Shown here: positions 4,321-25,160 of the stretch, in pieces
Position numbering within the stretch: the stretch's first letter is position 1
Layout: the number at the start of each line of letters is the position of its first letter
Virus record (IMG/VR): IMGVR_UViG_3300025874_000046
Span: 1 to 32,305 of that record
Length of the DNA stretch: 32,305 bases
Source: a virus
Lineage: Duplodnaviria > Caudoviricetes
Direction: 5' to 3' (one strand)
The notes under the pieces: model-generated
Databases searched by the model: none
Seen by the model: only the letters and a program-made list of their open reading frames with translations
Told to the model about the DNA's origin: nothing
Program-made: the position numbers and the translations under genes

Positions 4321-4799
4321 TGGCTAAAAAAGATTTACTAACAGTAAAGGTTAGCGGATTGCGTGAACTTGAAAAGGCGTTAAATGCCATAGATCTTGAT
4401 CTAAGAGAAAACACTCTCAAAGCAGCAGGTAAGCAAGCTATGGAACCTGTTGCCGCGAGGGCTCGCCAGAACGTCACACGTGACACCGGTGGCCTCCGTG
4501 AGACCATCAAAGTACAAGCAACAACAAACGTAAAGCGACTTGCTAAAATGTCTAATAAGAAGGGCACAGCAATGATTGCTAGCGTATATGCGGGCCGTAC
4601 GCGCGTAAAAGCGGGTGTCTCAGGGCACCAAGCCTTGCAAGTCGAATATGGTACATCTAAAAGTAGGGCGCAACCATTCCTACGTCCTGCCATCAGTGGT
4701 AAACAAAAAGTGGTCTTTATGCACTTCCGCAAGCATTTGCGCAAGGGCATCGATGCTACAGCTATTAAACAAGCAAGGCGCAATCGCCGCCTTAAATAA
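4320..4799 (+). CDS. HK97 gp10-like tail completion protein
   Basis: Motifs VSGLRELEKAL, DTGGLRETI and VEYGTSKSRAQPFLRPA; basic protein. Confidence 0.85.
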   Translation: MAKKDLLTVKVSGLRELEKALNAIDLDLRENTLKAAGKQAMEPVAARARQNVTRDTGGLRETIKVQATTNVKRLAKMSNKKGTAMIASVYAGRTRVKAGVSGHQALQVEYGTSKSRAQPFLRPAISGKQKVVFMHFRKHLRKGIDATAIKQARRNRRLK

Positions 4800-4810
4800 A
4801 AGGAAGCACA

Positions 4811-7210: not shown

Positions 7211-7220
7211 TCAATCTGAT

Positions 7221-7306
7221 CCATAAGTGATCCGTGTCGCACTAAGCCATAAACTTATATAAACATTAAGGGCTATAGCTTAGAGCGCGACACGGGTTAA
7301 ATATGG
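7221..7306 (+). other. Long imperfect intergenic stem-loop
   Basis: CCGTGTCGC (7232-7240) pairs with GCGACACGG (7287-7295). Inner CTAAGCCATA/TATAGCTTAG and outer CCATA/TATGG extend the stem. Confidence 0.65.
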
Positions 7307-7336
7307 GCTTCCTAATTCAAAATAAGGAGCATTTTT

Positions 7337-7810
7337 ATGTCATCTTTGTTACTCCCAGTGAGTCCAGAGCCCATTTCTTACAAGATTAGCTCCAAAGTAA
7401 ATACACTTCAGTCTGAAAGTTTATCAGGCAAAATACTAACTAGAAAAGTAGGTGGCCAGCGTTTTGAAGCTACCTTAGTTTTTCCGCCAATGCAGCGTGA
7501 AAGTTTTAGCGCAATACATGCATTCCTTATGGAGCGGGAAGGGGCTAATGGTATTTTTTACGTAAAAATTCCAGTGTTTGGTACTACGCCAGGGGCTGCT
7601 GGTGAATACATAAATTATAGCAACTCAACCAAACTGTACATGGTTAAGTCTGATGGTGTAAATACATACCCAGATCAATTAATTGCTGGTGGTACCGTTG
7701 AAATGAACAATGTCTCCTTACGCTGCTCTTTAAAAAGTAATGTCCAGATTATTGAGTATGGTACTGATGGTACTGTTCGAATTGAAATCGATGTTGTGGA
7801 GCGAATCTAA
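7337..7810 (+). CDS. Distal tail (Dit-like) protein
   Basis: RBS taaggag. First gene after the tape measure, with motif SLSGK..TR..GGQRFEATLVFPPM. Confidence 0.7.
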   Translation: MSSLLLPVSPEPISYKISSKVNTLQSESLSGKILTRKVGGQRFEATLVFPPMQRESFSAIHAFLMEREGANGIFYVKIPVFGTTPGAAGEYINYSNSTKLYMVKSDGVNTYPDQLIAGGTVEMNNVSLRCSLKSNVQIIEYGTDGTVRIEIDVVERI

Positions 7811-8352
7811 TGTTAAACGTTTCAAATACTTTACGCACCGCGCTTGCGGGCGACAACTTTGAGTATGCCTACATTGTAGACCTTCCAGTTGATTTACATT
7901 ATACAAATCATGGTAAGGACTTAGTTGTTAATAATACTAGTTATAACTCAAATGGCTTGCTTGTTAAGTTTGCACAAGTTAATCAAACCCAAGAATTGAG
8001 TCTTGCCACGTATTCCTTAGAGCTCTCAAATGTTGATAACTCTGTTGCTAAGGCTTATAGCTCAGGCAACTTTAGGGGGCTTACAGGCACCATTTCCCTA
8101 GCCGTCCTTGTAAATGGTGTTGTTCAAGGTATGCCTTTAATTATTTATAAAGGGACTATTGATTCATTTAGCATTCGTGAAACAAACAAAACCTCAGTAT
8201 TAGCAATTAAGTTAACTTCACACTGGGCAAGCTACAACCAAAAGGCAGGCAGGTATTCGTCAGATAGCTTACAACAGGATCTTTATTCCGGAGATCGCAT
8301 TTTTAAATATGCCCACAGTGAACAAAACAACATTGGGTGGGGTAAACGTTAA
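7810..8352 (+). CDS. Minor tail / hub protein (gpL-like position)
   Basis: TAATG overlap. Motifs IYKGTIDSFSI, SHWA...GR...Q...GDRIFKY and WGKR are typical of siphophage hub proteins. Confidence 0.7.
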   Translation: MLNVSNTLRTALAGDNFEYAYIVDLPVDLHYTNHGKDLVVNNTSYNSNGLLVKFAQVNQTQELSLATYSLELSNVDNSVAKAYSSGNFRGLTGTISLAVLVNGVVQGMPLIIYKGTIDSFSIRETNKTSVLAIKLTSHWASYNQKAGRYSSDSLQQDLYSGDRIFKYAHSEQNNIGWGKR

Positions 8353-8362
8353 GGAGTAGCCT

Positions 8363-11300: not shown

Positions 11301-11575
11301 TAACTGGTACTGTAAACGCTGCTGATATAACAGCAACGACAGAGTTAACTGTTGGAACAAGCCAGGATGTGGCTAAAGTATCAGGCTCAGATAGCAACTA
11401 CCGTATTTGGGTAGGGCACACGCAGCCTAACTCAGCACCATTCAAAGTAGCTAAAGATGGCGCGGTAACTATCAAAAGTGCTACTACGGGCGAGCGCTTA
11501 GAGATTGTAAGCGACCGAATAAAAGTCTATGACTCGACTGGTCAACTGCGAGTGCAGCTGGGTGATTTAAGCTAA
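8363..11575 (+). CDS. Tail tip / central fibre protein (lambda gpJ-like) with Fn3-like, carbohydrate-binding-like and coiled-coil regions
   Basis: 1070 aa. Motifs PLRIIYGKRR, GPIESI, KGTLVWDPR, WSTNPALCLLDYL, LECGDLITVT and GDLWVDT, ending in RIKVYDSTGQLRVQLGDL. Confidence 0.9.
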   Translation: MILSIIIAVVAVVGSVVMQKKMEQDMKDQQAGFLVSKSGGSNPLRIIYGKRRISTDTIWKDSSHKYMAQDLSEADSYHVANSEVIVHGGTSATAGNRRHKDYLHRLDAWCQGPIESILNIKVDDDVITHPRLSVGGPAPIRVLNKHGADSQEMFTSLVTNQDEISADMKGQNVAYSWSRFYYDIESPEYQGEPTLTAEIKGTLVWDPRVNPSDPSIKAWSTNPALCLLDYLTASYGRNLDVADIELDSFIAGANSCDAVVALPAETVVVTGGDYYNPTTGEYHTLAEGDTYTWHRYGQAVNSAPRYSCNVVLESTNSTKDNAQEILKCMKGSLPFIQGKYKLVLEEPGSSVMSFNNDNILGTVSIGFADRAKRLGRCTVKFPNANKGYKPDTISWPAAYSTLHNAYMANDNGDDLHTEVELTGVTDLYQARDLAEFMVRDSRTQEFITFKAQPSALVLECGDLITVTNDILDITNKVYRVRTMTMNADLTVDIKAQEYDPSVYPWNLTDEDSEAVALEQAPTAFDTPSPITSLQAMSVTESNTDGTASARIVAVWEQLESNTAAPELIEIGFQQGSESVISWVTLPPEAQAYAWVGLPDNTPFTVYARYKNSFGRFSATTSAAVTTPTANTEISATDQTARTSADDALLAASAAQATAGEKIYAFYEPSYIQSTSVIGPELVENGSFTGSSTYNGDVSTFTGVDGTISSYYTSARLVEDDNINPVYAYIPITTVPGKDYQMKVDKYYGQFSVRLSVSTTKSNDHVYASTPTSNSNSIELSQYFTARSETTYVLFEAINSSVGQYCGFDNVSVKEVSPTRWQPTANAIGDLWVDTADNNKLFRWSGSAWQSAQDGSTYDALVGAASAAQTAVLSSEHAQDALVGAAAAEQAASLSYEYAQSALGTADSAEQAAWRASHDAQTALNGAYSADQTAWQSSEYAQQALDAAKGAVAVAALAQTEQEVLSAIAADTTQINGARIITGTVNAADITATTELTVGTSQDVAKVSGSDSNYRIWVGHTQPNSAPFKVAKDGAVTIKSATTGERLEIVSDRIKVYDSTGQLRVQLGDLS
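10934..11185 (+). repeat. Four tandem 63-bp (21-aa) degenerate coding repeats in the tail tip gene
   Basis: DALVGAASAAQTAVLSSEHAQ / DALVGAAAAEQAASLSYEYAQ / SALGTADSAEQAAWRASHDAQ / TALNGAYSADQTAWQSSEYAQ; each unit ends in acgctcag. Confidence 0.9.
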
Positions 11576-11576
11576 C

Positions 11577-11608
11577 AAAAAAGGGCTCTTCGGGGCCCTT
11601 AATTATTT
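11577..11608. terminator. Hairpin with C(UUCG)G loop, possibly a bidirectional terminator
   Basis: AAGGGCTC-TTCG-GGGCCCTT, with an A tract upstream and an AT-rich tail downstream. Confidence 0.65.
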
Positions 11609-11620
11609 AAGGAGAAGCTA

Positions 11621-11893
11621 ATGAGTTTTGGCTTAAAAATTTATGATGAGTCTGGTAACACGCGCCTCGACGTTGCAGACCGCCAAATAAGGTTTCTAGG
11701 GACCTATAGGGGTACTCTTACTTATGGCACTCCTGCTGAAATCTTAATCCCTGGAATGACCAATGATGGTACGTGGGGTATCAATATTCTTAACGTAAGA
11801 GCGACTACGGATATTAGAATTGGTGAGGGCAAGGTTGAGCTTGATTCTACGTTTCCAAGTAGTAGCTATGCAGTGCAGGTGTTTCGGATATGA
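11621..11893 (+). CDS. Small tail-tip accessory protein
   Basis: RBS taaggag. The MSFGLKIYDESG start is typical of small proteins that follow gpJ-like genes. Confidence 0.65.
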   Translation: MSFGLKIYDESGNTRLDVADRQIRFLGTYRGTLTYGTPAEILIPGMTNDGTWGINILNVRATTDIRIGEGKVELDSTFPSSSYAVQVFRI

Positions 11894-12615
11894 GCTACGG
11901 ATTTAAAAGTATTAACAACGATGGTATTACCCAAATTGACGGTGCTAATGACAATATTGCAATTATTGCTACTGGTACAGCTGTTGCGCAAACAAAAGAG
12001 GGACCCTTAGATAATACGACAGTGCCGTACCCTGCAAATTTACCTGATGACATTTTAATCTTTGCAAAACCTTCAGATCCTGAAGCAGCAACAGGTATTC
12101 CGTTTACCTGTATCCAAAAAAGTACAGGGCTACAGTTTTTATTACCACGATACAACACAGCAACAATTGATATTGATTGGGCTATTGGTGTAAAGCACTC
12201 AGATATGCCCGCAGATACAAGCCCAGGTTGGGGTATTAAAATTTTTAATGACTCGGGTGGTGCCGCCTTTTCATCCAATAATAAAAATTTTAGGTGCCAA
12301 TACGCGGCATTTGAAATTGTAGAATACTTAAGATGGGACCCAGTGACCGTTTTTAATATTAATGATCTAACAACAACTTACTGCTTAATGACTGGCCATG
12401 GCACAGCAGGCTATGTCTGGAGTGGCCAATTGCGCCTAATTTATTCAATATTCATTGTCTACGATATTAATGCCGGTCCGGATGTGAACCAAGTAGATGG
12501 GACAATTGGGTTTTGGACAGGTGCTAGGCAAGCTATGGGCTTTAACATGGGTGGCAACTCTGGGGGCAGGTTTGGAAGTGGCTCGCTTGTGCATTTAGTT
12601 GGATCAATAGTCTAG
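11890..12615 (+). CDS. Tail-tip accessory / putative receptor-binding protein
   Basis: ATGA overlap. Repeated motif MSYGFKSINNDG / WGIKIFNDSG..FSS, related to the previous gene. Confidence 0.6.
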   Translation: MSYGFKSINNDGITQIDGANDNIAIIATGTAVAQTKEGPLDNTTVPYPANLPDDILIFAKPSDPEAATGIPFTCIQKSTGLQFLLPRYNTATIDIDWAIGVKHSDMPADTSPGWGIKIFNDSGGAAFSSNNKNFRCQYAAFEIVEYLRWDPVTVFNINDLTTTYCLMTGHGTAGYVWSGQLRLIYSIFIVYDINAGPDVNQVDGTIGFWTGARQAMGFNMGGNSGGRFGSGSLVHLVGSIV

Positions 12616-12627
12616 GAGGCTTTAACT

Positions 12628-13044
12628 ATGAAACATAAAACAAGTGCATTAGCACTTCTTAAGCAACATGAGGGCTTTGAGCAGTTCCCCTATGCAGATA
12701 GCCTAGGAACACTCACAATTGGCTATGGGCGCAATTTACAAGCCCGAGGGTTGGCTGAACATGAGGCAAGCTACTTATTAGAACACGATATTGATTTAGC
12801 TGAAAAGTACCTGGGTGCTTATGATTATTATGTAGAGTTAAGTGGTTATAGGAAAGCTGTTTTAATTGATATGATGGTTAATATGGGGCCTAGTCGTTTA
12901 GCAAAATTTATACGTATGCATGCCGCGCTTTTAAATAGAGACTACGAACTAGCAGCCCTAGAAATGCTTGATAGTAAATGGGCTGGGCAAGTAGGCCAAC
13001 GCGCCCTCACATTATCAAAAGTAATGAAGGCAGGTGTTTTATGA
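12628..13044 (+). CDS. Endolysin, T4-type lysozyme (GH24)
   Basis: HEG...YADSLGTLTIGYG gives the E-x8-D-x5-T catalytic triad. Also EMLDSKWAGQVGQRA. RBS aggagg. Confidence 0.92.
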   Translation: MKHKTSALALLKQHEGFEQFPYADSLGTLTIGYGRNLQARGLAEHEASYLLEHDIDLAEKYLGAYDYYVELSGYRKAVLIDMMVNMGPSRLAKFIRMHAALLNRDYELAALEMLDSKWAGQVGQRALTLSKVMKAGVL

Positions 13045-13451
13045 GCATAAACCCATTAACAGTCATTAAGGAAATATTTGCACCTGCTGCAGAGTTAGTT
13101 GATAACCTTCACACCAGTGATGAAGAGAGGCTTCAAGCCAAACAACAGCTTCTTCAGATACAAACTGCGGTTAGTTTGCAGCTACTGGAATACGAGCAAA
13201 ACATAATGGAAAGTAAGCACAGCGTAATTATTGCTGAAGCCACAAGTGATGGCTGGCTCCAAAAGAATTGGCGCCCTGTAACCATGATTACATTTCTAGG
13301 ACTTGCTGTTGCAGATAGCTTTGGTTGGCTTGCGTCGCCACTAGCCCCACAAGCATGGACTTTGCTTCAAGTGGGGCTTGGTGGCTATGTAATAGGCCGT
13401 TCGGCTGAGAAGGCAATTCCTAATATAATGAAAATTCTTAGCAGCAAATAA
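13041..13451 (+). CDS. Holin (GTA-type 3TM holin family)
   Basis: ATG at 13041 overlaps the lysozyme stop. Motifs HTSDEERL, AEATSDGWLQKNWRP and GLGGYVIGRSAEK, with hydrophobic segments. Confidence 0.8.
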   Translation: MSINPLTVIKEIFAPAAELVDNLHTSDEERLQAKQQLLQIQTAVSLQLLEYEQNIMESKHSVIIAEATSDGWLQKNWRPVTMITFLGLAVADSFGWLASPLAPQAWTLLQVGLGGYVIGRSAEKAIPNIMKILSSK

Positions 13452-13511
13452 GGTGTTGGTGCCACCTAAAAGCACTAGCACACTCCACTCACCACTAATA
13501 AGGAGTGTCTT

Positions 13512-13739
13512 ATGAGTAACTACTACACCTCTCTGATAGAAAAAATAGAAAAGCAAAATAGCTATTCTTTGAAGGACAAAATGGAAGTTCAATATCAACT
13601 CCGCGAAATCTCTCAAAAGCTACAGACGCTACTCACTAGAACCTCATACTTTTTTAGGATCATAATGGTTTTACAAATTATGAGCATTGGTGTGAGCAAT
13701 TTTGAAACCTTGCTACCATTACTTCGGCTGTTCTTATAG
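13512..13739 (+). CDS. Small coiled-coil protein with C-terminal hydrophobic segment (possible lysis accessory)
   Basis: RBS taaggag; last gene before the late terminator; hydrophobic C-terminus. Confidence 0.55.
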   Translation: MSNYYTSLIEKIEKQNSYSLKDKMEVQYQLREISQKLQTLLTRTSYFFRIIMVLQIMSIGVSNFETLLPLLRLFL

Positions 13740-13745
13740 CCTTTT

Positions 13746-13767
13746 GCCCCGCTTCGGCGGGGTTTTT
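13746..13767 (+). terminator. Intrinsic terminator ending the late operon
   Basis: GCCCCGC-TTCG-GCGGGGT followed by TTTT. Confidence 0.9.
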
Positions 13768-13882
13768 ATTGTAATATACTATGATAGCAATATGTTATTA
13801 ATCAATTTATTAATATATAATAATTAGGTTAGCAAAGAGCTAATATAAAGTAACGTAACTACAATTAAATAAGGCAACAAAA

Positions 13883-14206
13883 ATGCATAAGCAAGGGAAA
13901 AGAGACAATACGAGCATGGAGCTCAGAACACAGGCGGGGCTTTTTGTAAAAGCATTAAGAGCACACCAAGGTATAACCCAACGTGACATTGCGGTTGCTT
14001 TGAAGCTAAACTATTACACAATGATTTCACAGATTGAAAGCGGTTCAGCCCGCATACCCCCTGATCTTTATGTGGCCTATGCTAAAGTGCTTAAAGTAGA
14101 TTCTGCTTTGTTTGTTCAAAAACTTCTTCAGTATTATGACCCACACACTTACAAAGCGCTGTATGGTTCAAAACGCTTAACTGTTAATGACTTAATAGGC
14201 ATCTAA
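13883..14206 (+). CDS. XRE-family HTH regulator, probable repressor
   Basis: VKALRAHQGITQRDIAVAL...MISQIESG is an XRE HTH. It ends 3 nt before the integrase start, after an AT-rich promoter region. An alternative start exists at 13916. Confidence 0.85.
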   Translation: MHKQGKRDNTSMELRTQAGLFVKALRAHQGITQRDIAVALKLNYYTMISQIESGSARIPPDLYVAYAKVLKVDSALFVQKLLQYYDPHTYKALYGSKRLTVNDLIGI

Positions 14207-14209
14207 CTT

Positions 14210-15226
14210 ATGCGCGTTTTTAAACGCACCGATAGCCCTTTGTGGCAAATTGAGCTTTCTACACCAAAGGGCAAACAACGGTTTTCATCTAAAACATCTA
14301 TTAAAAGAGAAGCTGTTCGTCTTGCTACCTACAAACAACAGCAAGTTAATGACGCACAAAATTATGATAAAAAGATGAGCATTACGCTCAAAGAAGCCTG
14401 TGCCTTATATCTTGAAGAGCAGTTTCGAAAATCTGAAGCTACTTATTTAAACTCAAAATTCAATATAAGGCATTTATTAGATGAGGCTGTCTGGTCTCCG
14501 GAAGTACCATTCGAAACTATAACGGCTAAACAGGTTTTAAAACTACAAAAAGTTAAAGGCCATTTAAGCAATAATTCTATTAACCACATAACAACAGCTC
14601 TCGTAACTATGAAAAACCGTGCTGAAATTTGGGAGGTTCGAGCACCTACATTTAAAATTAAAAAACTAAAAGCGGTACAAAAGTTTAGATATTTAAGAGC
14701 CGGTGAGGAAGAGCAACTATTAGCGGCTTGTAAAGAACAGAATATTAAAGACCTTATTATTTTTTTAGTAGACACTGGCATGCGCATTGGTGAAGCAGTG
14801 GCTACTATGTGGTGTGATATAGAAGCAGGCAGTGTTGTAGTGTTCCGCAGTAAGACAGGCAATAGGACACTTCTTCCAATAACACCCAGGCTGCAAAAGA
14901 TCTTAAACGAGCGTGAGTTACGTTCGGTAAGTGCTTACATATTCCCACATGCCACTGTGTCAGGGGCCCACCGCACACCTGCAACAAAAGGTATTCGTTT
15001 AGCAGCCATGCGCGCTGGACTTAACACGCCTGAAATTGTTAAACGCTTTGGTAAGTTTACAGCGCATAGCTTAAGAGATACCTACGCAACACGCCTGGTT
15101 AAAGCCGGGCTTTCTTTGTACCAAGTTCAAATTATGCTTGGGCATGCTTCTACCCAACAAACTCAAAAGTACGCACATTTAACTACGGCAGATATAGGTA
15201 ATAAAGTTCTTGAGGCACTTTCTTAG
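14210..15226 (+). CDS. int: Tyrosine integrase
   Basis: Catalytic R (DTGMRIGE), K (SKTG), HxxR (HSLR), H (LGH) and Y (TQKYAH), with an N-terminal arm-binding-like region. Confidence 0.95.
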   Translation: MRVFKRTDSPLWQIELSTPKGKQRFSSKTSIKREAVRLATYKQQQVNDAQNYDKKMSITLKEACALYLEEQFRKSEATYLNSKFNIRHLLDEAVWSPEVPFETITAKQVLKLQKVKGHLSNNSINHITTALVTMKNRAEIWEVRAPTFKIKKLKAVQKFRYLRAGEEEQLLAACKEQNIKDLIIFLVDTGMRIGEAVATMWCDIEAGSVVVFRSKTGNRTLLPITPRLQKILNERELRSVSAYIFPHATVSGAHRTPATKGIRLAAMRAGLNTPEIVKRFGKFTAHSLRDTYATRLVKAGLSLYQVQIMLGHASTQQTQKYAHLTTADIGNKVLEALS

Positions 15227-15374
15227 CTTCTAATTATAGTTGCATAGTTTATGCATATAAGTATAATCAAAGACTATTAAGTTAAGTAACTTTATATATT
15301 GTAAGTACGCTAAATAAAATTATGCGGGCATACTTGTGACGTTTGGAATTTAATTTAAATAGAGGGTAAAGGGA

Positions 15375-15632
15375 ATGACTTGGTTATTAAAAGGGTTTAT
15401 TAAGAGCAAAGCAAAACCGGAAAGTTCAATTAGCTATGCGCACGAAGTAGTATCACTAGGGTCTTATGCTTTAAAAAAGTATGGGGCTGCAAACATTACG
15501 CTTTTTCAGTTAGACCAGGCAGAGGCGCTTGGTCACTTCGCTGACAATACCGGATTAACTGCAAACCCTACTGATTCAAAGGTTCTTTGTTTTGTAACTA
15601 CAAAAAAGGACACAAAAGAGACGCAGTACTAA
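15375..15632 (+). CDS. Hypothetical protein between int and the attP core
   Basis: 85-aa ORF with a purine-rich upstream region. No recognisable motif; its 3' end overlaps the candidate arm sites. Confidence 0.35.
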   Translation: MTWLLKGFIKSKAKPESSISYAHEVVSLGSYALKKYGAANITLFQLDQAEALGHFADNTGLTANPTDSKVLCFVTTKKDTKETQY

Positions 15633-15862
15633 TTTAGTAGTTAAGTAACTTTGTAAGGCTTACCCCTGTAAGCCAGTGGTAGCCTGCTTAATTTGGCTCC
15701 GCCTGCTGGGCTCGAACCAGCGACCCAATGATTAACAGTTGGTTGCAGGGGCCCCTACAACTACCTTACCTACGCCGAAAGGCTTGTAAATACTGACTTC
15801 CCAAAATCAAACCCTTTTAACTCTGGCTTAAAAAAGCCGGAAAGTGGACACGTTTTGGACAC
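15608..15862 (+). promoter_or_regulatory. Candidate integrase arm-type sites flanking the attP core
   Basis: Two direct pairs with 11-nt spacing: GGACAC (15608)/AGACGC (15619) and GGACAC (15846)/GGACAC (15857). Both pairs are followed by RGTAC. Confidence 0.6.
15694..15739 (-). mobile_element. attP core: 3' half of tRNA-Asn(GTT)
   Basis: The minus strand reads ACTGTTAATCATTGGGTCGCTGGTTCGAGCCCAGCAGGCGGAGCCA: anticodon loop CTGTTAA, T-arm GCTGG-TTCGAGC-CCAGC, acceptor strand and CCA. The 5' half of the tRNA is absent. Confidence 0.92.
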
Positions 15863-15863
15863 G

Positions 15864-15929
15864 GTACAGTAACTTTGCGTTAATTAATTGGTATTAAAGG
15901 TTTACGCAATATATGTATCACGACATTAT
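15864..15929 (+). promoter_or_regulatory. Operator plus sigma70-type promoter of the phage RNAP gene
   Basis: GTACAGTAACTTTGCGTTAA at 15864, then TTTACG(15901)-N17-CATTAT(15924), sharing the CGACAT(A/T)AT box with the cassette promoters. Confidence 0.65.
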
Positions 15930-15989
15930 CAGCTGTTAACGAATGGTAATTTTAGCAATCAAGTAACACAACTTGTCTAGGAGATAGAT

Positions 15990-18482
15990 ATGAGAGAGCA
16001 CACACAAGAGCAATTGATTAAGGAAATAATGTGGGAAAATCATCAGATAGAAGAGGGGGTGCGAAAGTACCGAGAGGCCTTAGAGGATAAAACACTTGAT
16101 GGAACAAAAGGGGGCATGCGGCTACTGCAAGAAGCAATGCCACACACGGTTGCCGGTATTAAAAAGGCTTACAAAGAGGCTGAAGCTACATTACTAAGTG
16201 GTAAAGCCGGTAATCAACCCAACTGGATGTTTTTGATTGGTATGGTATCGGCTGAGCAAGCAGCCGCTATTACTATTAATAAGGTAATGGCACACATACA
16301 AACAAATAAGGGGACTCAGGGGTCTTACGGTCAAAAGCAAATGAGCTTAACTGGTGTGGCTAAGTTAGTAGGCCAAGCGCTTCGCCAACAGTTAATGTTT
16401 GAAAACTGGAAGAAAAACGAAAAGATCAAACTTAAAGAGCATAACGAAACTGCTGATATTGATGACCAATATAGTAAATCGTATGCCGAACAACTTATTG
16501 AAAGGGCTCGAGGCAATGTAACACGCCCAAAGCTAGCTAGATGGAAGGCTAAGTTTGAAACTTACCAAAACATTGAATGGGGTCAAGATGAAGTCGTAAT
16601 TGGTATGAAGTTAATTGAAGTGCTTATTAGTACCAACCCTAATATTTTTACATACAAAATGATTAGTATTAAAGGTAAACGTACAAGATTATTAGAGTTT
16701 ACTGATGAAGCATGGGCCACTATTACTCAATGCAATGACAGTGCCGAATTACAAAGCCCCTTACTTCTACCAACATTAATCGAGCCGAAAGAGTGGTGCT
16801 ATGAAGATGGCAAAGTGGTTGGTGGGTATCATCACATGCAACAACCACTATTTACAAAGAAGCTATCAGCGCACACGGCCGCAGATGTAAATGCACCTTC
16901 TCAGCGCTTTTTAGAGTCTATTAATAAAGTGCAAGAAACAGCATGGAGTATTAATCCATATATCTTAATGGTTGTTGATATGATTATTGGCACAGATAAA
17001 GCACTTGGTGGTGTGCCTCGTATGTGTGAGCTACAAGCACCTAAATTGGACAAAGAAACTTTTGAGGCTTTAACAAAAGAAGAGCGCACTAAGTTTTTAA
17101 CAAAGCAAGCAGGTATTCGTGAAGACATTGCAAGTCAACGTGGGCGCCATTCAGCCTTTGTTCGTAAAGTGGCTATTGCTCGTAAAATGCTTACCCATGA
17201 TCGTTTTTACTTCCCACATTTTGCTGACTTCCGGGGCCGACTTTACCCAATGCCTGCAGAGCTAGCACCTCAAGGTGACCAGGTTGCAAAGGGTTTACTG
17301 CAGTTTGCAGAGAAACGTGAATTAGGTGAGTCTGGTTTGTTTTGGCTTAAAGTACATATTGCAAACACATTTGGAAATGATAAAGACAGCCTAAAGGATC
17401 GTGCTAAATGGGCTGAGGATAATATTAACATGCTAGCTGATTGTGTTATTGACCCATTAAATAACACTGAATGGGCAGGGGCTGATGCGCCTTTACCTTT
17501 TTTAGCTGCTGCCTATGATCTTGTAAATGCTTACGAACTTTCAGATCCAACTCAATATGAATCGCATATTGCTGTGGCTATGGACGGGACTTGTAATGGG
17601 ATGCAATTATTGAGCCTTTTAGGGCGCGATAATCTTGGTGCTGAAAAGACTAACTGTCGTCATTTTAACGAGCGCTTTGATTTGTATTCTGAAGTTGCTA
17701 CAAAGGTTATTGAAATATGCAAAAGAGAAACAACTAATAATGCTACAGCCGAAGAATGGTATAAGCGGCTTCATAACAACCCAAGCAAAGCTAGGAAAAC
17801 TGTTAAAAGGGCGGTAATGACAACTCCTTATGGTGTTACCGGTCGTGGAATAGCCCAGCAGCTAGTTAATGATCGGCACTGTAATGACCTAGGACAGGTC
17901 TCCCGGGCTACTGCTTCTGATTACATGAAAGAATGTATACTTGAGGCTATGTCTGAAGTTAATGGTAAGGCGGTTGAAATTATGGGTTACTTTCAAAATG
18001 TAGCAGGAGCCCTAGCATCAACTGAGCAACCCCTTTCTTGGTACACACCAATGGGACTCAAAGTAACTCAAGCCTATTATAAGATGGCCGATAAACGGGT
18101 ACAAACAGTATTTGGCACAGTTATCCTTTGGGCTGAAGATCATGAAATGGGATTAGATAGTCAGAAACAATTTCAATCAGCTGCTCCTAATGTGATTCAT
18201 AGCTTTGACGCTGCAATGTTGCAACTAACTGTAGAAAACCTTGCTAAAAAAGGACATACAGATTTTGCTATGATTCATGATAGCTATGGAATGCATGCTG
18301 GAAGCATTGCGGAGTTACATGCTACTTTAAGAGAAGCTGCTTACGAAATTTTTAGCACTGACAACTTAGCTGAGTTTCATGAATATACACAAGCACAGAC
18401 TGATACAGTGCTGCCAACATTACCAACCCAGGGTGATTACGATATAGCTGAGATACTTAGAGCGCCTTATTTTTTCTCATAA
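15990..18482 (+). CDS. T7-like single-subunit DNA-directed RNA polymerase
   Basis: 830 aa. Motifs DFRGRLY, A (MDGTCNGMQ), B (RKTVKRAVMTTPYG), APNVIHSFDA and C (IHDSYG), ending in YFFS. Confidence 0.97.
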   Translation: MREHTQEQLIKEIMWENHQIEEGVRKYREALEDKTLDGTKGGMRLLQEAMPHTVAGIKKAYKEAEATLLSGKAGNQPNWMFLIGMVSAEQAAAITINKVMAHIQTNKGTQGSYGQKQMSLTGVAKLVGQALRQQLMFENWKKNEKIKLKEHNETADIDDQYSKSYAEQLIERARGNVTRPKLARWKAKFETYQNIEWGQDEVVIGMKLIEVLISTNPNIFTYKMISIKGKRTRLLEFTDEAWATITQCNDSAELQSPLLLPTLIEPKEWCYEDGKVVGGYHHMQQPLFTKKLSAHTAADVNAPSQRFLESINKVQETAWSINPYILMVVDMIIGTDKALGGVPRMCELQAPKLDKETFEALTKEERTKFLTKQAGIREDIASQRGRHSAFVRKVAIARKMLTHDRFYFPHFADFRGRLYPMPAELAPQGDQVAKGLLQFAEKRELGESGLFWLKVHIANTFGNDKDSLKDRAKWAEDNINMLADCVIDPLNNTEWAGADAPLPFLAAAYDLVNAYELSDPTQYESHIAVAMDGTCNGMQLLSLLGRDNLGAEKTNCRHFNERFDLYSEVATKVIEICKRETTNNATAEEWYKRLHNNPSKARKTVKRAVMTTPYGVTGRGIAQQLVNDRHCNDLGQVSRATASDYMKECILEAMSEVNGKAVEIMGYFQNVAGALASTEQPLSWYTPMGLKVTQAYYKMADKRVQTVFGTVILWAEDHEMGLDSQKQFQSAAPNVIHSFDAAMLQLTVENLAKKGHTDFAMIHDSYGMHAGSIAELHATLREAAYEIFSTDNLAEFHEYTQAQTDTVLPTLPTQGDYDIAEILRAPYFFS

Positions 18483-18483
18483 A

Positions 18484-18594
18484 GTACAGTAACTTTGAGT
18501 TAAATAACTAAATATTGCATAAAGTAGTGTACGTGGGCTAAATACCTCGACATAATGTTTACATTAAATAACGAAACGCAAGGAAAAAACAATG
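18484..18594 (+). repeat. Cassette repeat copy 1 (operator, host promoter and RBS only)
   Basis: GTACAGTAACTTTGAGTTAAAT...TGTACG(18528)-N17-CATAAT(18551)...AAATAACGAAACGCAAGGA..ATG. Confidence 0.9.
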
Positions 18595-18795
18595 GAAACT
18601 ATTATTGGTAAGCAAGTAATCTTAAAGCCAGAGTACCAAGATCGATGGCAGTATTGCTTTAGTTATGACAAGCCAGTTTTTAGAGCGATCGACGAAATGG
18701 AAAAAGGGCGCGTGACTGTTGTCTGTGAACTCCCGGGCTTTAGCATTCCGCCAACATATGTAATTAAAGATTACATGATTGAAAGCATTAAATAA
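18592..18795 (+). CDS. Small early protein A1 (paralog of 19188..19376)
   Basis: RBS aagga. METIIGKQVILKPEYQD...GRVTVVCELPGFS...KDYMIESIK. Confidence 0.8.
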   Translation: METIIGKQVILKPEYQDRWQYCFSYDKPVFRAIDEMEKGRVTVVCELPGFSIPPTYVIKDYMIESIK

Positions 18796-18818
18796 ACAAA
18801 CACATTGAGGGCAATACT

Positions 18819-19034
18819 ATGACAGCGTTGACTGAAAAAGAAATATATGAGTTTCTAGATAATAATAGAACCTTAGCTGAAATAAAAAGTGACGAAATAT
18901 TTGTAAAATCGATTGAGTGCAACTTACCTGAATGGAAAAAAGACAACAAGTTAGGACACCTTCACTGGGAGCGTGTTGAGCGCCTTGAATATATTAAAGC
19001 ATTAAAATCATATAGTGACTTTTATAAATCCTAA
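18819..19034 (+). CDS. Small early hypothetical protein
   Basis: RBS gagg; 71 aa; ends at the repeat boundary. Confidence 0.75.
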   Translation: MTALTEKEIYEFLDNNRTLAEIKSDEIFVKSIECNLPEWKKDNKLGHLHWERVERLEYIKALKSYSDFYKS

Positions 19035-19190
19035 AAGCAATCCCTTCGCCCCTTAATTGGGGCTTTTTAGGTGAAAGGTGTACAGTAACTTTGAGTTAAA
19101 TGAGTTTATATTGCATAAAGTAGTGTACGTGGACTGAATACCTCGACATAATGTTTACATCAAATAACGAAACGCAAGGAAATAACGATG
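19030..19190 (+). repeat. Cassette repeat copy 2 (terminator, operator, promoter, RBS)
   Basis: CCTAAAAGCAATCCCTTC-GCCCCTTAATTGGGGC-TTTTT (19048-19068), GTACAGTAACT (19080), TGTACG(19124)-N17-CATAAT(19147), AACGAAACGCAAGGA. Confidence 0.92.
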
Positions 19191-19376
19191 GACAGCATAA
19201 TTGGTAAGCAAATAATCTTTAAGCCAGAGTATCAAGACGCCGGAGATGATGAGTTTATTTTTAGAGCACACAGTGAAATGGAAAATGGGCGAGTAACCGT
19301 TATTTGTGAAATACCAGGTTTTAGCTTTCCATCAATATCTGTAGCTAAAGACTACATGATTGAAAGTATTAAATAA
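19188..19376 (+). CDS. Small early protein A2 (paralog of 18592..18795)
   Basis: MDSIIGKQIIFKPEYQD...GRVTVICEIPGFS...KDYMIESIK. Confidence 0.8.
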   Translation: MDSIIGKQIIFKPEYQDAGDDEFIFRAHSEMENGRVTVICEIPGFSFPSISVAKDYMIESIK

Positions 19377-19399
19377 CGAAACGCACAGAGGATAACAAC

Positions 19400-19552
19400 A
19401 TGACATACGCAGAACGTAAAGTGGCAACTAAGTTAAAAAGCTTTCTTGACCAAGGCTGGACTAAAAGTCAGTTAATAAAGTTAATGAAAAACATGAGCTA
19501 CTGTGACGAGACAATTGTTCACTTAATTTATATCGCAAAACACAAAATTTAA
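19400..19552 (+). CDS. Small early hypothetical protein, 50 aa (not in the ORF track)
   Basis: RBS gagga. MTYAERKVATKLKSFLDQGWTKSQLIKLMKNMSYCDETIVHLIYIAKHKI. Confidence 0.75.
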   Translation: MTYAERKVATKLKSFLDQGWTKSQLIKLMKNMSYCDETIVHLIYIAKHKI

Positions 19553-19556
19553 AATC

Positions 19557-19716
19557 CCTAAAGCAATACCTTCGCCCCTTAATTGGGGCTTTTTAGGTGA
19601 AAGGTGTACAGTAACTTTGAGTTAAATAACTAAATATTGCATAAAGTAGTGTACGTGGGCTGAATACCACGACATAATGTTTACATTAAATAACGAAACG
19701 CAAGGAAATACAGATG
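19557..19716 (+). repeat. Cassette repeat copy 3 (terminator, operator, promoter, RBS)
   Basis: Terminator 19574-19594, GTACAGTAACT at 19606, TGTACG(19650)-N17-CATAAT(19673), AACGAAACGCAAGGA. Confidence 0.92.
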
Positions 19717-19887
19717 ATTTACTACACAGGTGTTATTAATAGTAAAGCTAAAGTTTGGCACTTCCAAACATGGGTCCAAGTGCTTGAATTTTTAGAGGCT
19801 TATAACGCTCACAAAGACTTTGACACAATACACGAAGTTGATGAGGCTACAGCTAAAGTGCTGTACAACGTAATCCACAAAATTTAA
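19714..19887 (+). CDS. Small early hypothetical protein, 57 aa (not in the ORF track)
   Basis: Starts at the repeat's RBS/ATG. MIYYTGVINSKAKVWHFQTWVQVLEFLEAYNAHKDFDTIHEVDEATAKVLYNVIHKI. Confidence 0.75.
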   Translation: MIYYTGVINSKAKVWHFQTWVQVLEFLEAYNAHKDFDTIHEVDEATAKVLYNVIHKI

Positions 19888-19923
19888 AACCCCTAAAGCA
19901 ATCCTTACAAGGAAGATTTTAAA

Positions 19924-20097
19924 ATGGAAAACTTAAACAAAACCCAAGTAATTGAGCACATCGCTAAACACGAGCTTTTTATTGAAACTTTAACTGAGCG
20001 CGGTTTAGACGATTTAGACTTCCACGATATATCAGTAACTTCTATTAAAAATGCTCTAGAACTTGCTTACGAAGCTGGAAAAAACGCCGGCAAATAA
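19924..20097 (+). CDS. Small early protein, 57 aa, DUF6900-like (not in the ORF track)
   Basis: RBS aagga. IAKHELFIETLTERGLDDLDFHDISVTSIKNALELAYEAG resembles the IETL..R..D.LDFHD.SV..LE.AYEAG pattern recalled for DUF6900. Confidence 0.75.
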   Translation: MENLNKTQVIEHIAKHELFIETLTERGLDDLDFHDISVTSIKNALELAYEAGKNAGK

Positions 20098-20108
20098 AAT
20101 GGAAAAAC

Positions 20109-20172
20109 CCCTAAAAGCAATCCTTTCGCCCCTTAATTGGGGCTTTTTAGGTGAAAGACGTACAGTAACTTT
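20109..20172 (+). repeat. Cassette repeat copy 4 (terminator and operator half only)
   Basis: CCCTAAAAGCAATCCTTTC, terminator 20128-20148, AGGTGAAAG and GTACAGTAACTTT (20160); the sequence then diverges and has no CGACATAAT box. Confidence 0.85.
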
Positions 20173-20200
20173 AAATTAAGCAAACAACTTGGAGAAATTT

Positions 20201-20398
20201 ATGTCTGATTTATATATTGCTGAAGTAATGGCTGCCGACGAGATTGTTGAAAAACTCTACAACACTAAACCAACACTAAACGACGTTATCTATTACGTGC
20301 AAACTGAAGCTAGACGCCTTAATCCTGATGACATTTTTGAGCGTATGCGTGCGGACGTTTGCATGCGGATACGTGTAATAGAACAACTTGGCTTGTAA
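20201..20398 (+). CDS. Small hypothetical protein
   Basis: ATG at 20201 after GGAG is preferred over the TTG at 20189. Confidence 0.7.
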   Translation: MSDLYIAEVMAADEIVEKLYNTKPTLNDVIYYVQTEARRLNPDDIFERMRADVCMRIRVIEQLGL

Positions 20399-20423
20399 CA
20401 CACACTATCAGCTTTGCGAAAAC

Positions 20424-20447
20424 GCCCCTTAATTGGGGCTTTTTTTT
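20424..20447 (+). terminator. Intrinsic terminator (same GCCCCTTAATTGGGGC hairpin)
   Basis: Hairpin followed by T8. Confidence 0.9.
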
Positions 20448-20449
20448 GG

Positions 20450-20483
20450 TGTAACGATTAACCTACTTAATAGGAAGAACTCT
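20450..20483 (+). promoter_or_regulatory. Probable phage RNAP promoter, copy 1
   Basis: TGTAACGATTAACCTACTTAATAGGAAGAACTCT is identical at 23666 and 23724. The 17+6 layout GATTAACCTACTTAATA|GGAAGA resembles T7/T3/SP6 promoters. Confidence 0.85.
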
Positions 20484-20493
20484 GGAGACTACC

Positions 20494-21006
20494 ATGAATA
20501 TTTTTGCACTTTCGCAAGACCCAATAACAGCTGCTCAACTTCAATGTGATAAGCATGTTGTAAAAATGATACTTGAAACCGCACAAATGTTGTCTACAGC
20601 TCATCGTGAGCTAGGTTCCAATATTAGTAGCAATTTACTTTATAAAAAAACGCATGTTAACCATCCTTCAGCTATGTGGATTCGTGAAACATCTGACAAC
20701 TACACCTGGGCTGTTCGACATTTTGAAGCCTTATGCGACGAGTACACCTTTAGATATGGCAAAACACATTTATCGGATACTAAGCTGCGCAAAGCCTTTT
20801 GCGAAAACATGCCACTAGCAATTTCATCCGGCAAACTTTCATCACCCCCACAGTGTATGCCTCCGCAATATCATGTGCGCAAAAGCCATGTGTTTGATTG
20901 GGCGGCATCTATTGCGGCATACACACAATATTACGGCGCAGAAAAATCGGCAATTGCTCGATACACCAAACGTCCAACACCTACTTTTATTGAGGCACAG
21001 GTATGA
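20494..21006 (+). CDS. Pyrimidine-dimer DNA glycosylase / endonuclease V-like family protein
   Basis: MNIF...DP..AAQLQCDKHVVKMILETAQMLST and YKKTHVNHPS..W. RBS ggag. Confidence 0.7.
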   Translation: MNIFALSQDPITAAQLQCDKHVVKMILETAQMLSTAHRELGSNISSNLLYKKTHVNHPSAMWIRETSDNYTWAVRHFEALCDEYTFRYGKTHLSDTKLRKAFCENMPLAISSGKLSSPPQCMPPQYHVRKSHVFDWAASIAAYTQYYGAEKSAIARYTKRPTPTFIEAQV

Positions 21007-22209: not shown

Positions 22210-22857
22210 CTATCTAGCATTCACCTCCATAACATGTCTAACACGATGCTTACGACCAGCAGTCCAATCATGAACAACACCACCTTTAACACAAGCAACA
22301 TGACCTCTAACAAAAACAAGGTAGGTTTTAGTTTCATCTAAACGGCGATGAATAGTTGACATTGTGCCTGTATCAAGAAAGCCAGGAACAATTGATACAC
22401 TGAATCCTAGCTTATCAAGCGCATTTCTTATTTGAGTAGTCGAAACGCCTTTACCGTGCTTTCGGCCTAAGTCTTTAAATAAGTCATAGCACTTGTCATA
22501 CATTGTGTTAGTAGCAACTGCCGCCGCAATAACACCACACATGTTGTTGTCGCCTAAACGTTTAGCATCAACACAGGTGGTTTGGTAAGTTTCCTTGCCC
22601 TCACCTAAAATAAATTTAGCTGTAGGCTTAGCTTTAAACATTTTAGCTTGCTTGCTGCTGATCTTTTCAAAAAAGAATGGAGCAACCGGTTTTACATAAC
22701 GCTTATCAGTTGCCTTGCGCCCTGTGTTATAAACTTGAGTTGGTGACACTTGGTAGCTTTTAACAAAAGACGCCATTTCTTTATAGTCTTTAAATGTGAA
22801 TAGTCTTATTGACTCATTTACACATAGGCGCTCGTGTGTAGTGGTTATGTAAATCAT
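22210..22857 (-). CDS. Hypothetical protein with possible Cys-His-Asp papain-like C-terminal domain; the only credible minus-strand gene
   Basis: RBS ggag on the minus strand, with its own promoter and terminator. Motifs NMCGVIAAAV, RGHVACV and VHDW. Confidence 0.75.
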   Translation of the reverse strand: MIYITTTHERLCVNESIRLFTFKDYKEMASFVKSYQVSPTQVYNTGRKATDKRYVKPVAPFFFEKISSKQAKMFKAKPTAKFILGEGKETYQTTCVDAKRLGDNNMCGVIAAAVATNTMYDKCYDLFKDLGRKHGKGVSTTQIRNALDKLGFSVSIVPGFLDTGTMSTIHRRLDETKTYLVFVRGHVACVKGGVVHDWTAGRKHRVRHVMEVNAR

Positions 22858-22895
22858 AATATGCTCCGTTAAGTAACTATGTATTTAATAAGTAT

Positions 22896-22915
22896 ATTAT
22901 GTCGAGTTACTGTAC
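22896..22915 (-). promoter_or_regulatory. Leftward promoter -10 box with overlapping operator motif
   Basis: The minus strand reads GTACAGTAACTCGACATAAT, joining both conserved cassette motifs. Confidence 0.7.
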
Positions 22916-23006
22916 TTTCGGGAGCCCTTTTTTGAAAAATTACCTAAAATAATTAGAGTAAAACGGAATGGTTATCGCTTTATATATAGCAAATTGTTTT
23001 AAAAAA

Positions 23007-23060
23007 TACAGTAACTATTTAACTATTAACTGTGTACATAGTTGCAAAACACGACATAAT
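23007..23060 (+). promoter_or_regulatory. Rightward host-type promoter of the cassette family
   Basis: TACAGTAACT (23007), then TGTACA(23033)-N16-CATAAT(23055) with CACGACATAAT. Confidence 0.7.
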
Positions 23061-23098
23061 AGACGCATACAAACAAACAATTGATTAGGATTACTGTT

Positions 23099-23293
23099 AT
23101 GAAATATTTAGTTGAAGGCATTAAAGCTAACGAACAAGACTACAGTAAAGTCTTTGAAGTAAAGCACGTTTGCGAAAAAATGGGATTGACTAAATTTACA
23201 AGTGGACACTACGCACAATGGAATGGCTGCATGTGTCTATACACTAAAACTGGTCGACGTGTTGCCAAATACGTTGAATTGACTGAGGTTTGA
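23099..23293 (+). CDS. Small hypothetical protein
   Basis: ATG at 23099 after agga is preferred over the TTG at 23081. Confidence 0.7.
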   Translation: MKYLVEGIKANEQDYSKVFEVKHVCEKMGLTKFTSGHYAQWNGCMCLYTKTGRRVAKYVELTEV

Positions 23294-23296
23294 ATT

Positions 23297-23572
23297 ATGA
23301 AAAATATTAGAGACTGTAAAGTTGGTGATTTGTTAAAGCAGCACGAGGAAAGACTTTGGAATCATAAAAATGGTTCGTCTCATATACAGATTGTTAATAG
23401 TATTATACAAATTACTGCAATGTACGAAAACAGACTAGAGTGGAAAACTATAGAAATACTAGATACTAAAGATGTTTGCCCTATACAAACAGATCTACTA
23501 GGCGTAACAGGGGGCACAGCATTTAGAGCATTTGATAATCCACGAGCCGCCTTATTTTACACTATTCTTTAA
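23297..23572 (+). CDS. Small hypothetical protein
   Basis: RBS gagg; 91 aa; followed by the family terminator. Confidence 0.7.
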   Translation: MKNIRDCKVGDLLKQHEERLWNHKNGSSHIQIVNSIIQITAMYENRLEWKTIEILDTKDVCPIQTDLLGVTGGTAFRAFDNPRAALFYTIL

Positions 23573-23592
23573 TTAAAAATTAACCTCTCTTA

Positions 23593-23614
23593 GCCCCTTA
23601 ATTGGGGCTTTTTT
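23593..23614 (+). terminator. Intrinsic terminator (fifth GCCCCTTAATTGGGGC copy)
   Basis: Hairpin followed by T6. Confidence 0.9.
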
Positions 23615-23665
23615 ATGCCTATCAAAAAGTCTTCCTTCTATATATGGCCCCTCTCTCTTCTGAAA

Positions 23666-24080: not shown

Positions 24081-24100
24081 GACACATGAGGAGTAACTCA

Positions 24101-24697
24101 ATGTCTAAAAAATCCCTATACGTAAATTTTGCCACATCAACTGGCCTTGCTAATTATGCATGGCTCAATAAACCAGATACTGGTTCCGAATATTCTGACG
24201 GCAAATATAAAGTCACCGTTGCTTGGAATAAAGACGACGCCTTTGTTGCTCAGTTAAAAGGCATTGTTAAAGATGCTGCACAACGTGAGTTTGGCGATAA
24301 GATTCCAAATGGCTTCAACAACCCATTAAAAGATGGTGATGCTGGTAACAAAGAACAGTTTGCCGGTAAAGTTTACGCAACCTTTAAGTCAACTCGTAAG
24401 CCCGTAGCTGTTGACGCTAAGAACCTGGAGCTGCCTGAAAATGTAATTATTATGTCGGGTGATGAAGTTCGAATTGCCGCAGCAGCAAAGGCCTATAACG
24501 GTGCGCAGCAGGGCGTATCGTTTTACCTTGATATGGTTAAGCTGATCTCTAAAAATAACGCCGGGGGTGGATCTTCCGCTGCTTCGTTGTTTGGTGAAGA
24601 CGAAGGTTTCTCAGCTGAAGGTATGGCTGCAGAAGCATTTGAGCCTGCTGCCGCCTCCGCGCCAACTGGTGCTGCAATCGACATAGACGACCTATAG
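24101..24697 (+). CDS. ssb: Single-stranded DNA-binding protein (T7 gp2.5-like)
   Basis: ATG at 24101 after GAGGAG. Motifs G.ANYAWLNKPD, GKYKVT, PLKDGD and GVSFYLDMV, with an acidic C-terminal tail. Confidence 0.85.
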   Translation: MSKKSLYVNFATSTGLANYAWLNKPDTGSEYSDGKYKVTVAWNKDDAFVAQLKGIVKDAAQREFGDKIPNGFNNPLKDGDAGNKEQFAGKVYATFKSTRKPVAVDAKNLELPENVIIMSGDEVRIAAAAKAYNGAQQGVSFYLDMVKLISKNNAGGGSSAASLFGEDEGFSAEGMAAEAFEPAAASAPTGAAIDIDDL

Positions 24698-24698
24698 C

Positions 24699-25160
24699 AT
24701 GACGGCCGCCGTTAGAAAGGCGGTTGCTAGTTCGGTTCGATTGATGCGCGAGCAGTCTGATGATGTCAGATTGTTCGTGCTCCCAGTAACCCCACGCCCG
24801 GCTTCAAGACCCCGTGTCACTAAGTGGGGTGTTTACTATGGAAAACCTTACACGCAATTCCGTCAACAAAGCCAACCATACGCCGATGCTTATGATTCGC
24901 ACCCCCCAATCTATGGACCCATTGCTATTTTAGTTGAGATTGTCTGTGAAAAACCAAAGACAGGAAAGCTAATCCACCCCCGCGGTGATGTCGATAACTA
25001 TGCTAAAGGTCCCCTTGATGTAATGACTAAATCAGGAAACTTTTGGAAGGATGATGTTCAAGTCGTTTCTATTCAGTGTGTCAAACGTTACGCCGACCCT
25101 ATTGAAGATGAGCAACCTGCTTGCAATATGTACTACTACGAAGTTTTCGAGGATAACTAA
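24699..25160 (+). CDS. rusA: RusA-like Holliday junction resolvase
   Basis: PRPASRPRV, GDVDNYAKGPLD and WKDDVQV match the DxDN..K..LD...DD catalytic pattern. Confidence 0.85.
   Translation: MTAAVRKAVASSVRLMREQSDDVRLFVLPVTPRPASRPRVTKWGVYYGKPYTQFRQQSQPYADAYDSHPPIYGPIAILVEIVCEKPKTGKLIHPRGDVDNYAKGPLDVMTKSGNFWKDDVQVVSIQCVKRYADPIEDEQPACNMYYYEVFEDN

Follow-up and report, generated by a model that had tools for sequence, protein, structure and literature searches.

Why should a run of small genes behind a phage RNA polymerase (RNAP) gene be parted, again and again, by almost the same piece of regulatory DNA? The question is raised by the virus contig IMGVR_UViG_3300025874_000046, the whole 32,305 nucleotides (nt) of which form the window analysed here. 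Its array of small genes lies between a T7-like RNAP gene and a likely phage-RNAP promoter. We read this stretch as a variable early region in a marine siphovirus that is likely temperate. Near-identical repeats, each predicted to contain a terminator, an operator, a promoter and a ribosome-binding site (RBS), part the small genes, and blocks of these genes are likely lost, gained and exchanged when the repeats recombine with one another. The probability that we give to this reading is about 0.72.

The original prediction, made from the letters of the window, had described full and half repeats in this array, and both kinds were recovered. A 165-nt family occupies 19026-19190 and 19552-19716 (93% alike) and shows its promoter half at 18484-18594; a 70-nt family begins at 19030, 19556 and 20110 with 93-96% identity; a 22-nt run of hairpin plus T residues is 100% identical at 19047, 19573, 20127 and 20423; and three 100-nt operator-promoter-leader units are 93-98% identical. 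The dot-plot that had been proposed as a check was done as a self-comparison: the early region contains 11 pairs of repeats, the RNAP gene none. Seven small open reading frames (ORFs), named A1, B, A2, C, D, E and F in Table 1, code for 67, 71, 62, 50, 57, 57 and 65 amino acids (aa), each with a Shine-Dalgarno-like sequence upstream. They had been called mostly unrelated; A1 and A2, however, are paralogs with 63% aa identity. A remnant of the 5' part of a terminator unit between D and E is likely the scar of an older rearrangement.

Table 1. Features of the early array and its surroundings in the window
Feature	Position	Strand	Details
XRE-type helix-turn-helix (HTH) protein	13883..14206	+	PF01381 HTH_3, E 5e-7; PHROG repressors
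Tyrosine integrase	14210..15226	+	phrog_1, E 3e-47
3' half of tRNA-Asn, likely core of the phage attachment site (attP)	15694..15740	-	47/47 identical in L003
Operator motif and promoter-like site before RNAP gene	15865..15929	+	TTTACG-17-CATTAT
T7-like single-subunit RNA polymerase	15990..18482	+	phrog_414, E 2e-181
Unit P1, without terminator	18484..18591	+	operator 18485-18494; -35 TGTACG 18528-18533; -10 CATAAT 18551-18556; leader; RBS
Cargo A1	18592..18795	+	67 aa
Cargo B	18819..19034	+	71 aa
Full unit	19030..19190	+	hairpin 19048-19063; operator 19081-19090; -35 19124-19129; -10 19147-19152; leader; RBS; ATG
Cargo A2	19188..19376	+	62 aa; A1 paralog
34-nt leader/RBS/start copy	19371..19404	+	crossover interval
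Cargo C	19400..19552	+	50 aa
Full unit	19556..19716	+	hairpin 19574-19589; operator 19607-19616; -35 19650-19655; -10 19673-19678; leader; RBS; ATG
Cargo D	19714..19887	+	57 aa
Remnant of terminator unit's 5' part	19888..19906	+	between D and E; no hairpin
Cargo E	19924..20097	+	57 aa; DUF6900, PF21841, E 2.4e-20; phrog_2555
Half unit, without promoter	20104..20179	+	hairpin 20128-20143; operator 20161-20170
Cargo F	20201..20398	+	65 aa
Final terminator-like hairpin	20423..20447	+	8 T, against 5 T in internal copies
Likely phage-RNAP promoter	20452..20478	+	27 nt; identical copies at 23668 and 23726
Second, smaller early unit of the same parts	22860..23615		divergent CGACATAAT promoter-like sites; operator motifs 22869, 22905, 23007; same hairpin near 23592

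Does the content of the array change while the rest of the phage stays the same? The G496/L001 contig is 100% identical to the window over 1-18480 and over 7990-19404. After 19404 it carries 1,012 extra nt, made up of four genes (G, H, I and J) and two more repeat units, and then rejoins the window at C. The insert is flanked by an exact copy of the 34-nt leader, RBS and start, which L001 has twice. Another locus (L033) shows the same longer form over its covered extent, and in repeat-pattern scans of viral contigs the L001 contig was the sole match. The window thus shows only one allele of the array, and a longer one exists. This suggests that such variants occur inside wild populations while nothing else differs over 19 kb.

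Sequencing depth points the same way. Relative to A2, contig depth in the runs X1/X2 was 1.02/1.02 for A1-B, 0.76/0.83 for G, 0.26/0.23 for HIJ and 0.44/0.41 for C, so that cassette depths differ about fourfold in two runs, at a GC content of 35-39% throughout the segments compared. Unequal cassette content in X1 and X2 is thus well supported. The depths fit at least three coexisting alleles, with A2-C at about 18-24%, A2-G-HIJ-C at about 25%, and A2-G skipping both HIJ and C at 50-60%. Such a model predicts an A2 depth of 12.2 in X1 and 87.6 in X2, and 13.0 and 86.6 were seen. In the NCBI source A1, B, A2, G, D, E and F are present while C, H and J are absent, as they would be in the inferred major allele. 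The runs X3 and X4 have no cover over HIJ and most of C, but both are too shallow or partial to count. The DNA search for runs listed eight in all, none of them an RNA run.

Is there similar turnover in other phages of this kind? Relatives' loci were taken from viral contigs (15 and 14), metagenomes (37) and genomes (1), the single genome locus being a prophage of about 45 kb in the SAR92 clade bacterium H921, whose RNAP is 53% identical to the window's. Seven genomes of this prophage's clade (L013-L018 and L024), alike at 88-99% of nt over the RNAP 3' part (74% for L013; L040 and L041 were set aside as identical duplicates), share a promoter-X-hairpin/RBS-Y scaffold with a repeat of its own, yet each has a different arrangement of it, seven in all, and the order of two genes is swapped between L014 and L018. 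Pairwise alignments of six of the seven, read by eye, gave 13 distinct content changes, with repeats at both ends in 6, at one end in 4 and at neither in 3. Among the 6 are stretches of 609 and 298 nt from hairpin to hairpin and of 524 nt from promoter to promoter, as well as cases in which the gene between a promoter and a hairpin is replaced. A third group (L047, L049, L038 and L055) has a distinct terminator-promoter-leader repeat of 53-134 nt. Thus relatives do not carry the same genes in the same order, which was the comparison that the original prediction had called for: cargo differs between otherwise identical genomes and across the sister clade. Of the gain, loss and amplification that had been foreseen at repeats, gain or loss is seen, whereas the only amplification seen is the old duplication of A1 and A2.

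The repeats themselves change from lineage to lineage. Repeat types follow the RNAP tree, on which promoter labels are not used as counts, as the search expressions undercount the TTGACA type. Within a lineage repeats are 91-98% alike, spacer included, against 64-80% to the same-position unit in relatives, which would fit concerted evolution. Between P1 and P2, the units ahead of A1 and A2, 7 of 100 sites differ, whereas 13 of the 39 identical-residue codons of the two genes differ synonymously. Alignment blocks end in repeats in 41 of 123 cases, against a repeat cover of about 13%, a trend only, since the pairs depend on one another, divergence makes up many of the ends and the count missed two promoter copies of L014.

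What might the repeats do? The candidate promoter TGTACG-17-CATAAT, with CGA in front, is kept at exact spacing with differing spacers in L009, L010, L046 and L050; at the corresponding position the sister clade carries TTGACA-17-TATAAT. Because a consensus scan missed the boxes, the promoter assignment rests on this conservation in relatives, and it is in this sense that the CATAAT boxes, first proposed as host promoters, keep that role as a sequence signature. TTGCAT as an alternative -35 box was ruled out, as it has no -10 at proper distance and is not kept in L009, L010 or L050; readings as a LexA box or as sigma-54 or sigma-28 promoters were ruled out by eye against the consensus sequences. 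The motif TWMAGTAACT, a pattern picked after viewing the sequence, occurs 12 times in the window against 0.52 expected, and 0 of 100 shuffles reached 12. In all 12 loci examined it lies, as CAGYRACT, 5-10 nt beyond the stop codon of the RNAP gene, and it is also present ahead of that gene; in one clade it stands upstream of the -35 box and downstream of the start, and in a third clade reversed within the spacer. We read this moving and flipping relative to promoters as operator behaviour, and CAGTRACT is likely an operator for the conserved HTH repressor, which is kept at 54-69% identity in the 11 relative loci and genome pieces covering that side, the SAR92 prophage included.

The hairpin and its T run lie upstream of the promoter and have folding z values of -1.9 to -2.5. 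The internal copies have 5 T and short stems with a 10-nt bulge, which can be extended to 13 pairs with upstream bases. Among the five hairpin-operator units of the window and L001, three are followed by a complete promoter signature, and genes F and H have no promoter of their own. It had been claimed that each cassette is a self-contained transcription unit. Most blocks do carry a promoter signature, but the claim is too strong because F, though it has a terminator and an operator, lacks -35 and -10 boxes; nor is there a terminator between the RNAP gene and A1. The repeated hairpin of the sister clade (L014 8396-8426 and relatives) has no T run and is fused to the RBS; it may stabilise or process mRNA rather than terminate transcription.

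Several observations weigh against recombination at regulatory repeats and should be noticed together. The sigma-70 consensus scan gave 5 sites against 10.9 expected, none of them at the CATAAT boxes, and the -35 box is TTGACA at only 3 of 6 positions. The 3 sister-clade changes with no repeat at either end have already been counted; 82 of the 123 alignment block ends fall outside repeats, many of them mere divergence; and no long repeated unit was found in L019/L053, L046 and L059, of which the L046 and L059 loci are incomplete. Purifying selection rather than exchange could account for the conservation of the repeats. As to the alleles, both other assemblies give A2-G and not the window's A2-C, and the depth contigs were built with 31-mers, which cannot bridge the 34-nt repeat, so the A2-C junction of the window rests on one assembly and on depth arithmetic. 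For D, a looser check whose depth was taken from a joint row that we interpret as the D contig, the three-allele model predicts 12.2 against 13.6 seen in X1, and 87.6 against only 75.6 seen in X2. RNAP depth in X2 is 0.84 of that of A2, indicating noise of about 15%. Further, X1 is possibly the window's own source, and X1 and X2 possibly belong to one campaign.

How far do these points favour other explanations? One is that illegitimate or microhomology recombination happens anywhere, and that junctions are seen at repeats only because those products keep expression, the repeats being just many copies of a needed promoter. This would account for the changes without repeat ends, one of which shows a 5-nt microhomology at overlapping stop and start codons, and early genes also differ among lineages without long repeats. 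It does not predict clean deletions with exact flanking homology of 34 nt and 18 nt, the 524- and 609-nt deletions that run from one repeat to the next, or an unconstrained 17-nt spacer that is common to the copies within a genome and different between lineages; we think such filtering improbable, though worth keeping in mind. Another explanation is a single long array that assembly collapsed at its repeats into the shorter forms, that of the window among them. Besides the two A2-G assemblies, it may be argued from the ten cargo proteins looked up, all on record on a 43,445-nt contig (a single contig is probable, not shown), and from two contigs that end inside the array. However, a single arrangement predicts equal depth, while HIJ is at 0.23-0.26 and C at 0.41-0.44 of their neighbours in both runs at equal GC content, and collapse cannot create the replacements by unrelated genes in the sister clade, nor the isolate genome (L024). 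As a general account an assembly artefact is thus very unlikely; for the window's own junction taken alone it is merely unlikely, and that junction is likely real, though not proven and possibly an assembly path.

Two further explanations concern the agents involved. In an integron-like scheme, the integrase or another recombinase would act on CAGTAACT or on the hairpin motif: an integrase gene does lie 3 kb upstream, the motif is kept across lineages, and gene order is swapped between L014 and L018. Yet crossover intervals vary among leader, hairpin-RBS and promoter, the best-mapped interval is without the motif, and the motif changes its place and orientation with respect to the promoters, which is to be expected of an operator. 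Because the intervals differ and the array of the SAR92 prophage goes with an unrelated integrase, with no match to the one in the window, we hold such site-specific action to be highly improbable. Finally, the hairpins might be sites of RNA processing or stabilisation in one long early transcript for which a single promoter matters. The early region of T7 has such RNase III sites. The 5-T hairpins extendable to 13 pairs, the H hairpin of the sister clade, without T run and directly before the RBS, and the want of own promoters at F and H would suit this idea. Complete promoter signatures after hairpins in 3 of 5 units, and short stems with a 10-nt bulge, do not, and we find it scarcely credible.

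Then how would recombination between the repeats leave a working early region? Host RNA polymerase would start at TGTACG-17-CATAAT and stop, leakily, at the 5-T hairpins, and the phage HTH protein would bind CAGTRACT and so keep both the early cassettes and the gene for RNAP shut off during lysogeny. Exchange would come about by ordinary homologous recombination, through host RecA or through a phage gp2.5-like annealing protein and a RusA-like resolvase (24086-25160). Any gene that lands between repeats would take on early timing and repression, so that recombinant products could be viable and alleles could coexist; such exchange would also hold the repeats of one lineage close to each other in sequence. 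A more far-reaching scenario, which is possible but doubtful, is that the array is a standing contingency locus: at least three alleles would be kept in an otherwise clonal population, incoming genes would be wired to the lysogeny repressor, repeats would evolve in concert in each lineage, and the cargo would be new small inhibitors of SAR92-type host defences.

Is there any precedent? The original prediction had pointed to the promoter-early stem-loop (PeSL) cassettes of T4-type phages, and this analogy fits the available text of Arbiol et al. 2010 (PMC2839356) and Comeau et al. 2014 (PMC4122927). As described there, a unit of stem-loop, sigma-70-like promoter, Shine-Dalgarno and ATG recurs between the small orphan genes of a hypervariable region, close relatives differ by indels whose ends lie in units, and degraded half units occur, as they do here. 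PeSL crossovers map between the -10 box and the Shine-Dalgarno or ATG, and so does the 34-nt interval of the window; the PST/T4 consensus TTTACW-17-TAYWAT resembles the window's TGTACG/TTTACG-17-CATAAT. Five sequence-level features of PeSLs are all found in the array: promoter signature, stem-loop, Shine-Dalgarno and start at the 3' end, multiple copies, and indels bounded by units. On the other hand, a blastn search of 18400-20500 against 50,697 phage records found no DNA match, and the array is not homologous to the T4-type elements. PeSL phages are described as lytic T4-type myoviruses, while this one is a siphovirus of about 43-45 kb (from relatives' contigs) with an integrase and a T7-like RNAP. 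Unlike PeSLs, the window unit contains a likely repressor operator, its copies follow the RNAP gene directly as one compact tandem array, and the variation seen here lies within near-clonal wild populations. Promoter activity and mini-circles are reported in the PeSL work, whereas the window array is known from its sequence. By analogy, then, it may work like a PeSL array without being homologous to one or a member of the class. For a cyanophage region, PeSLs were rejected in the text available of PMC4503421.

Other systems share some of these traits. The morons and linker-sequence exchange of lambdoid phages also involve temperate siphoviruses, accessory genes with their own promoter and terminator, and exchange at conserved flanks; as PMC2839356 summarises them, however, morons have no conserved flanks and mostly run against local transcription, while here the flanks are paralogous repeats that run in one direction and are likely repressed together with the early genes. 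Early regulons of archaeal viruses, made up of candidate anti-defence genes with a common promoter motif, likewise have small accessory genes, unrelated to one another, downstream of a strong and conserved early control sequence, but in another domain of life and with another promoter type, and two of their genes have anti-defence activity; the Abstract and Discussion of that paper do not deal with recombination at the shared motif (PMC11065993). Integron cassettes are promoterless and depend on one upstream promoter, whereas most window blocks carry their own promoter signature. The early region of T7 has dispensable small genes, transcribed by host RNAP, that adjoin the gene for the phage polymerase and come before the first of the phage promoters, the same placing as in the window. 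T7 is lytic, with clustered promoters, one processed transcript and no repeated terminator-operator-promoter unit, while the window array has such units and its phage is likely temperate. A literature search, which left out most subscription papers, found no PeSL-like arrays for T7-RNAP siphoviruses; the PeSL-type shuffling that it did find concerns isolate pairs of lytic T4-type phages. The principle itself is thus already known, and the array extends it to an unrelated, likely temperate group of T7-RNAP siphoviruses and adds a likely repressor operator.

What is carried in the array? Among the 11 cargo proteins of the window and L001, only E reached the cut-off of a family (DUF6900) in Pfam, PHROGs and NCBIfam; the same literature search found no paper naming DUF6900, and a homolog search with E gave no function. 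For A1 nothing beyond A2-type proteins was found. As a lead only, models suggest that A1 could be a small SH3/KOW-like barrel, the Atlas structure match having a TM score of 0.58-0.68, below the bar for naming a fold; in the Atlas search scores for A1 and D stayed under 0.9 and gave no function. C is a predicted three-helix protein, variably present, with a handful of distant homologs in other lineages of the phage group; its fold search had no match at E<=0.001, and its profile search gave no function. From position and turnover, one guess would be that the cargo has some role in host interaction, anti-defence included. The about 40 families of tiny early genes across the loci compared are candidates for host-interaction screens.

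As to the phage itself, a PHROG search assigned genes of the window to a siphovirus head-tail and tail module, lysis, HTH, tyrosine integrase, T7-like RNAP and T7-like replication, and the phage is likely temperate. It has no close relative among cultured phages, the best RNAP match being 31% identical. The att core of the window is identical to the H921 genome at 44 of 45 nt, but is found at no more than 1 mismatch in 89 of 301 genomes of SAR92's order and is thus not host-specific; the host is therefore likely a marine gammaproteobacterium related to SAR92, and not shown to be SAR92 itself. Among 202 SAR92-family genomes, this RNAP is present in just 1. The H921 prophage has the same tail genes and HTH, is bordered by an intact tRNA-Pro on one side and by part of a tRNA-Pro on the other, and would open promoters, operator binding and circles to testing. 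An SAR92 virus classed as a podovirus is reported in the available text of PMC4611503.

The uncultured group to which the window belongs (with L009-L024 and L074-L075) combines a lambda-like siphovirus tail module, integrase, XRE repressor and tRNA att site with a T7-like RNAP and replication module, and its RNAPs share no more than 31% identity with those of cultured phages; no account of it was found in the literature search. Its integration module is swapped by lineage. The window, L009 and L003 have the tRNA-Asn site and one integrase, while L014, L015, L018 and L024 have a tRNA-Pro site, an unrelated integrase and a reversed HTH gene, the HTH and the operator motif being retained (L024 8400-9690 compared with window 14210-15226). 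A complete tRNA-Asn(GTT) stands at the att position in L009 (6586-6661) and L010 (6592-6667), where the window has the 3' half only. An 85-aa ORF (15375-15632) that lies between the integrase gene and the att core has a TTAAGTAACTTT variant of the operator motif on each side, at 15280-15296 and 15639-15655.

Where does the array end? The 27-nt repeat at 20452, which we take to be a phage-RNAP promoter by its likeness to those of T7 and T3, likely marks the end of the host-RNAP early array. Relatives carry lineage-specific versions of it at matching positions; often two of them stand in tandem ahead of a conserved 54-aa ORF (window 23831), which itself precedes the ssb gene. The first gene after it (20494-21006) is pyrimidine-dimer-glycosylase-like (PF03013), intact in L010 and partly deleted in L009. 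Near the second early unit, a 215-aa gene on the reverse strand (22210-22857, phrog_3754) has its own CGACATAAT promoter-like site overlapped by an operator motif, and its homologs in L009, L010, L047 and L049 take varied early positions in both orientations. Away from the early region, the C-terminal part of the central tail fibre gene contains tandem repeats of about 63 nt at 10934-11195, whose copies are 77% alike.

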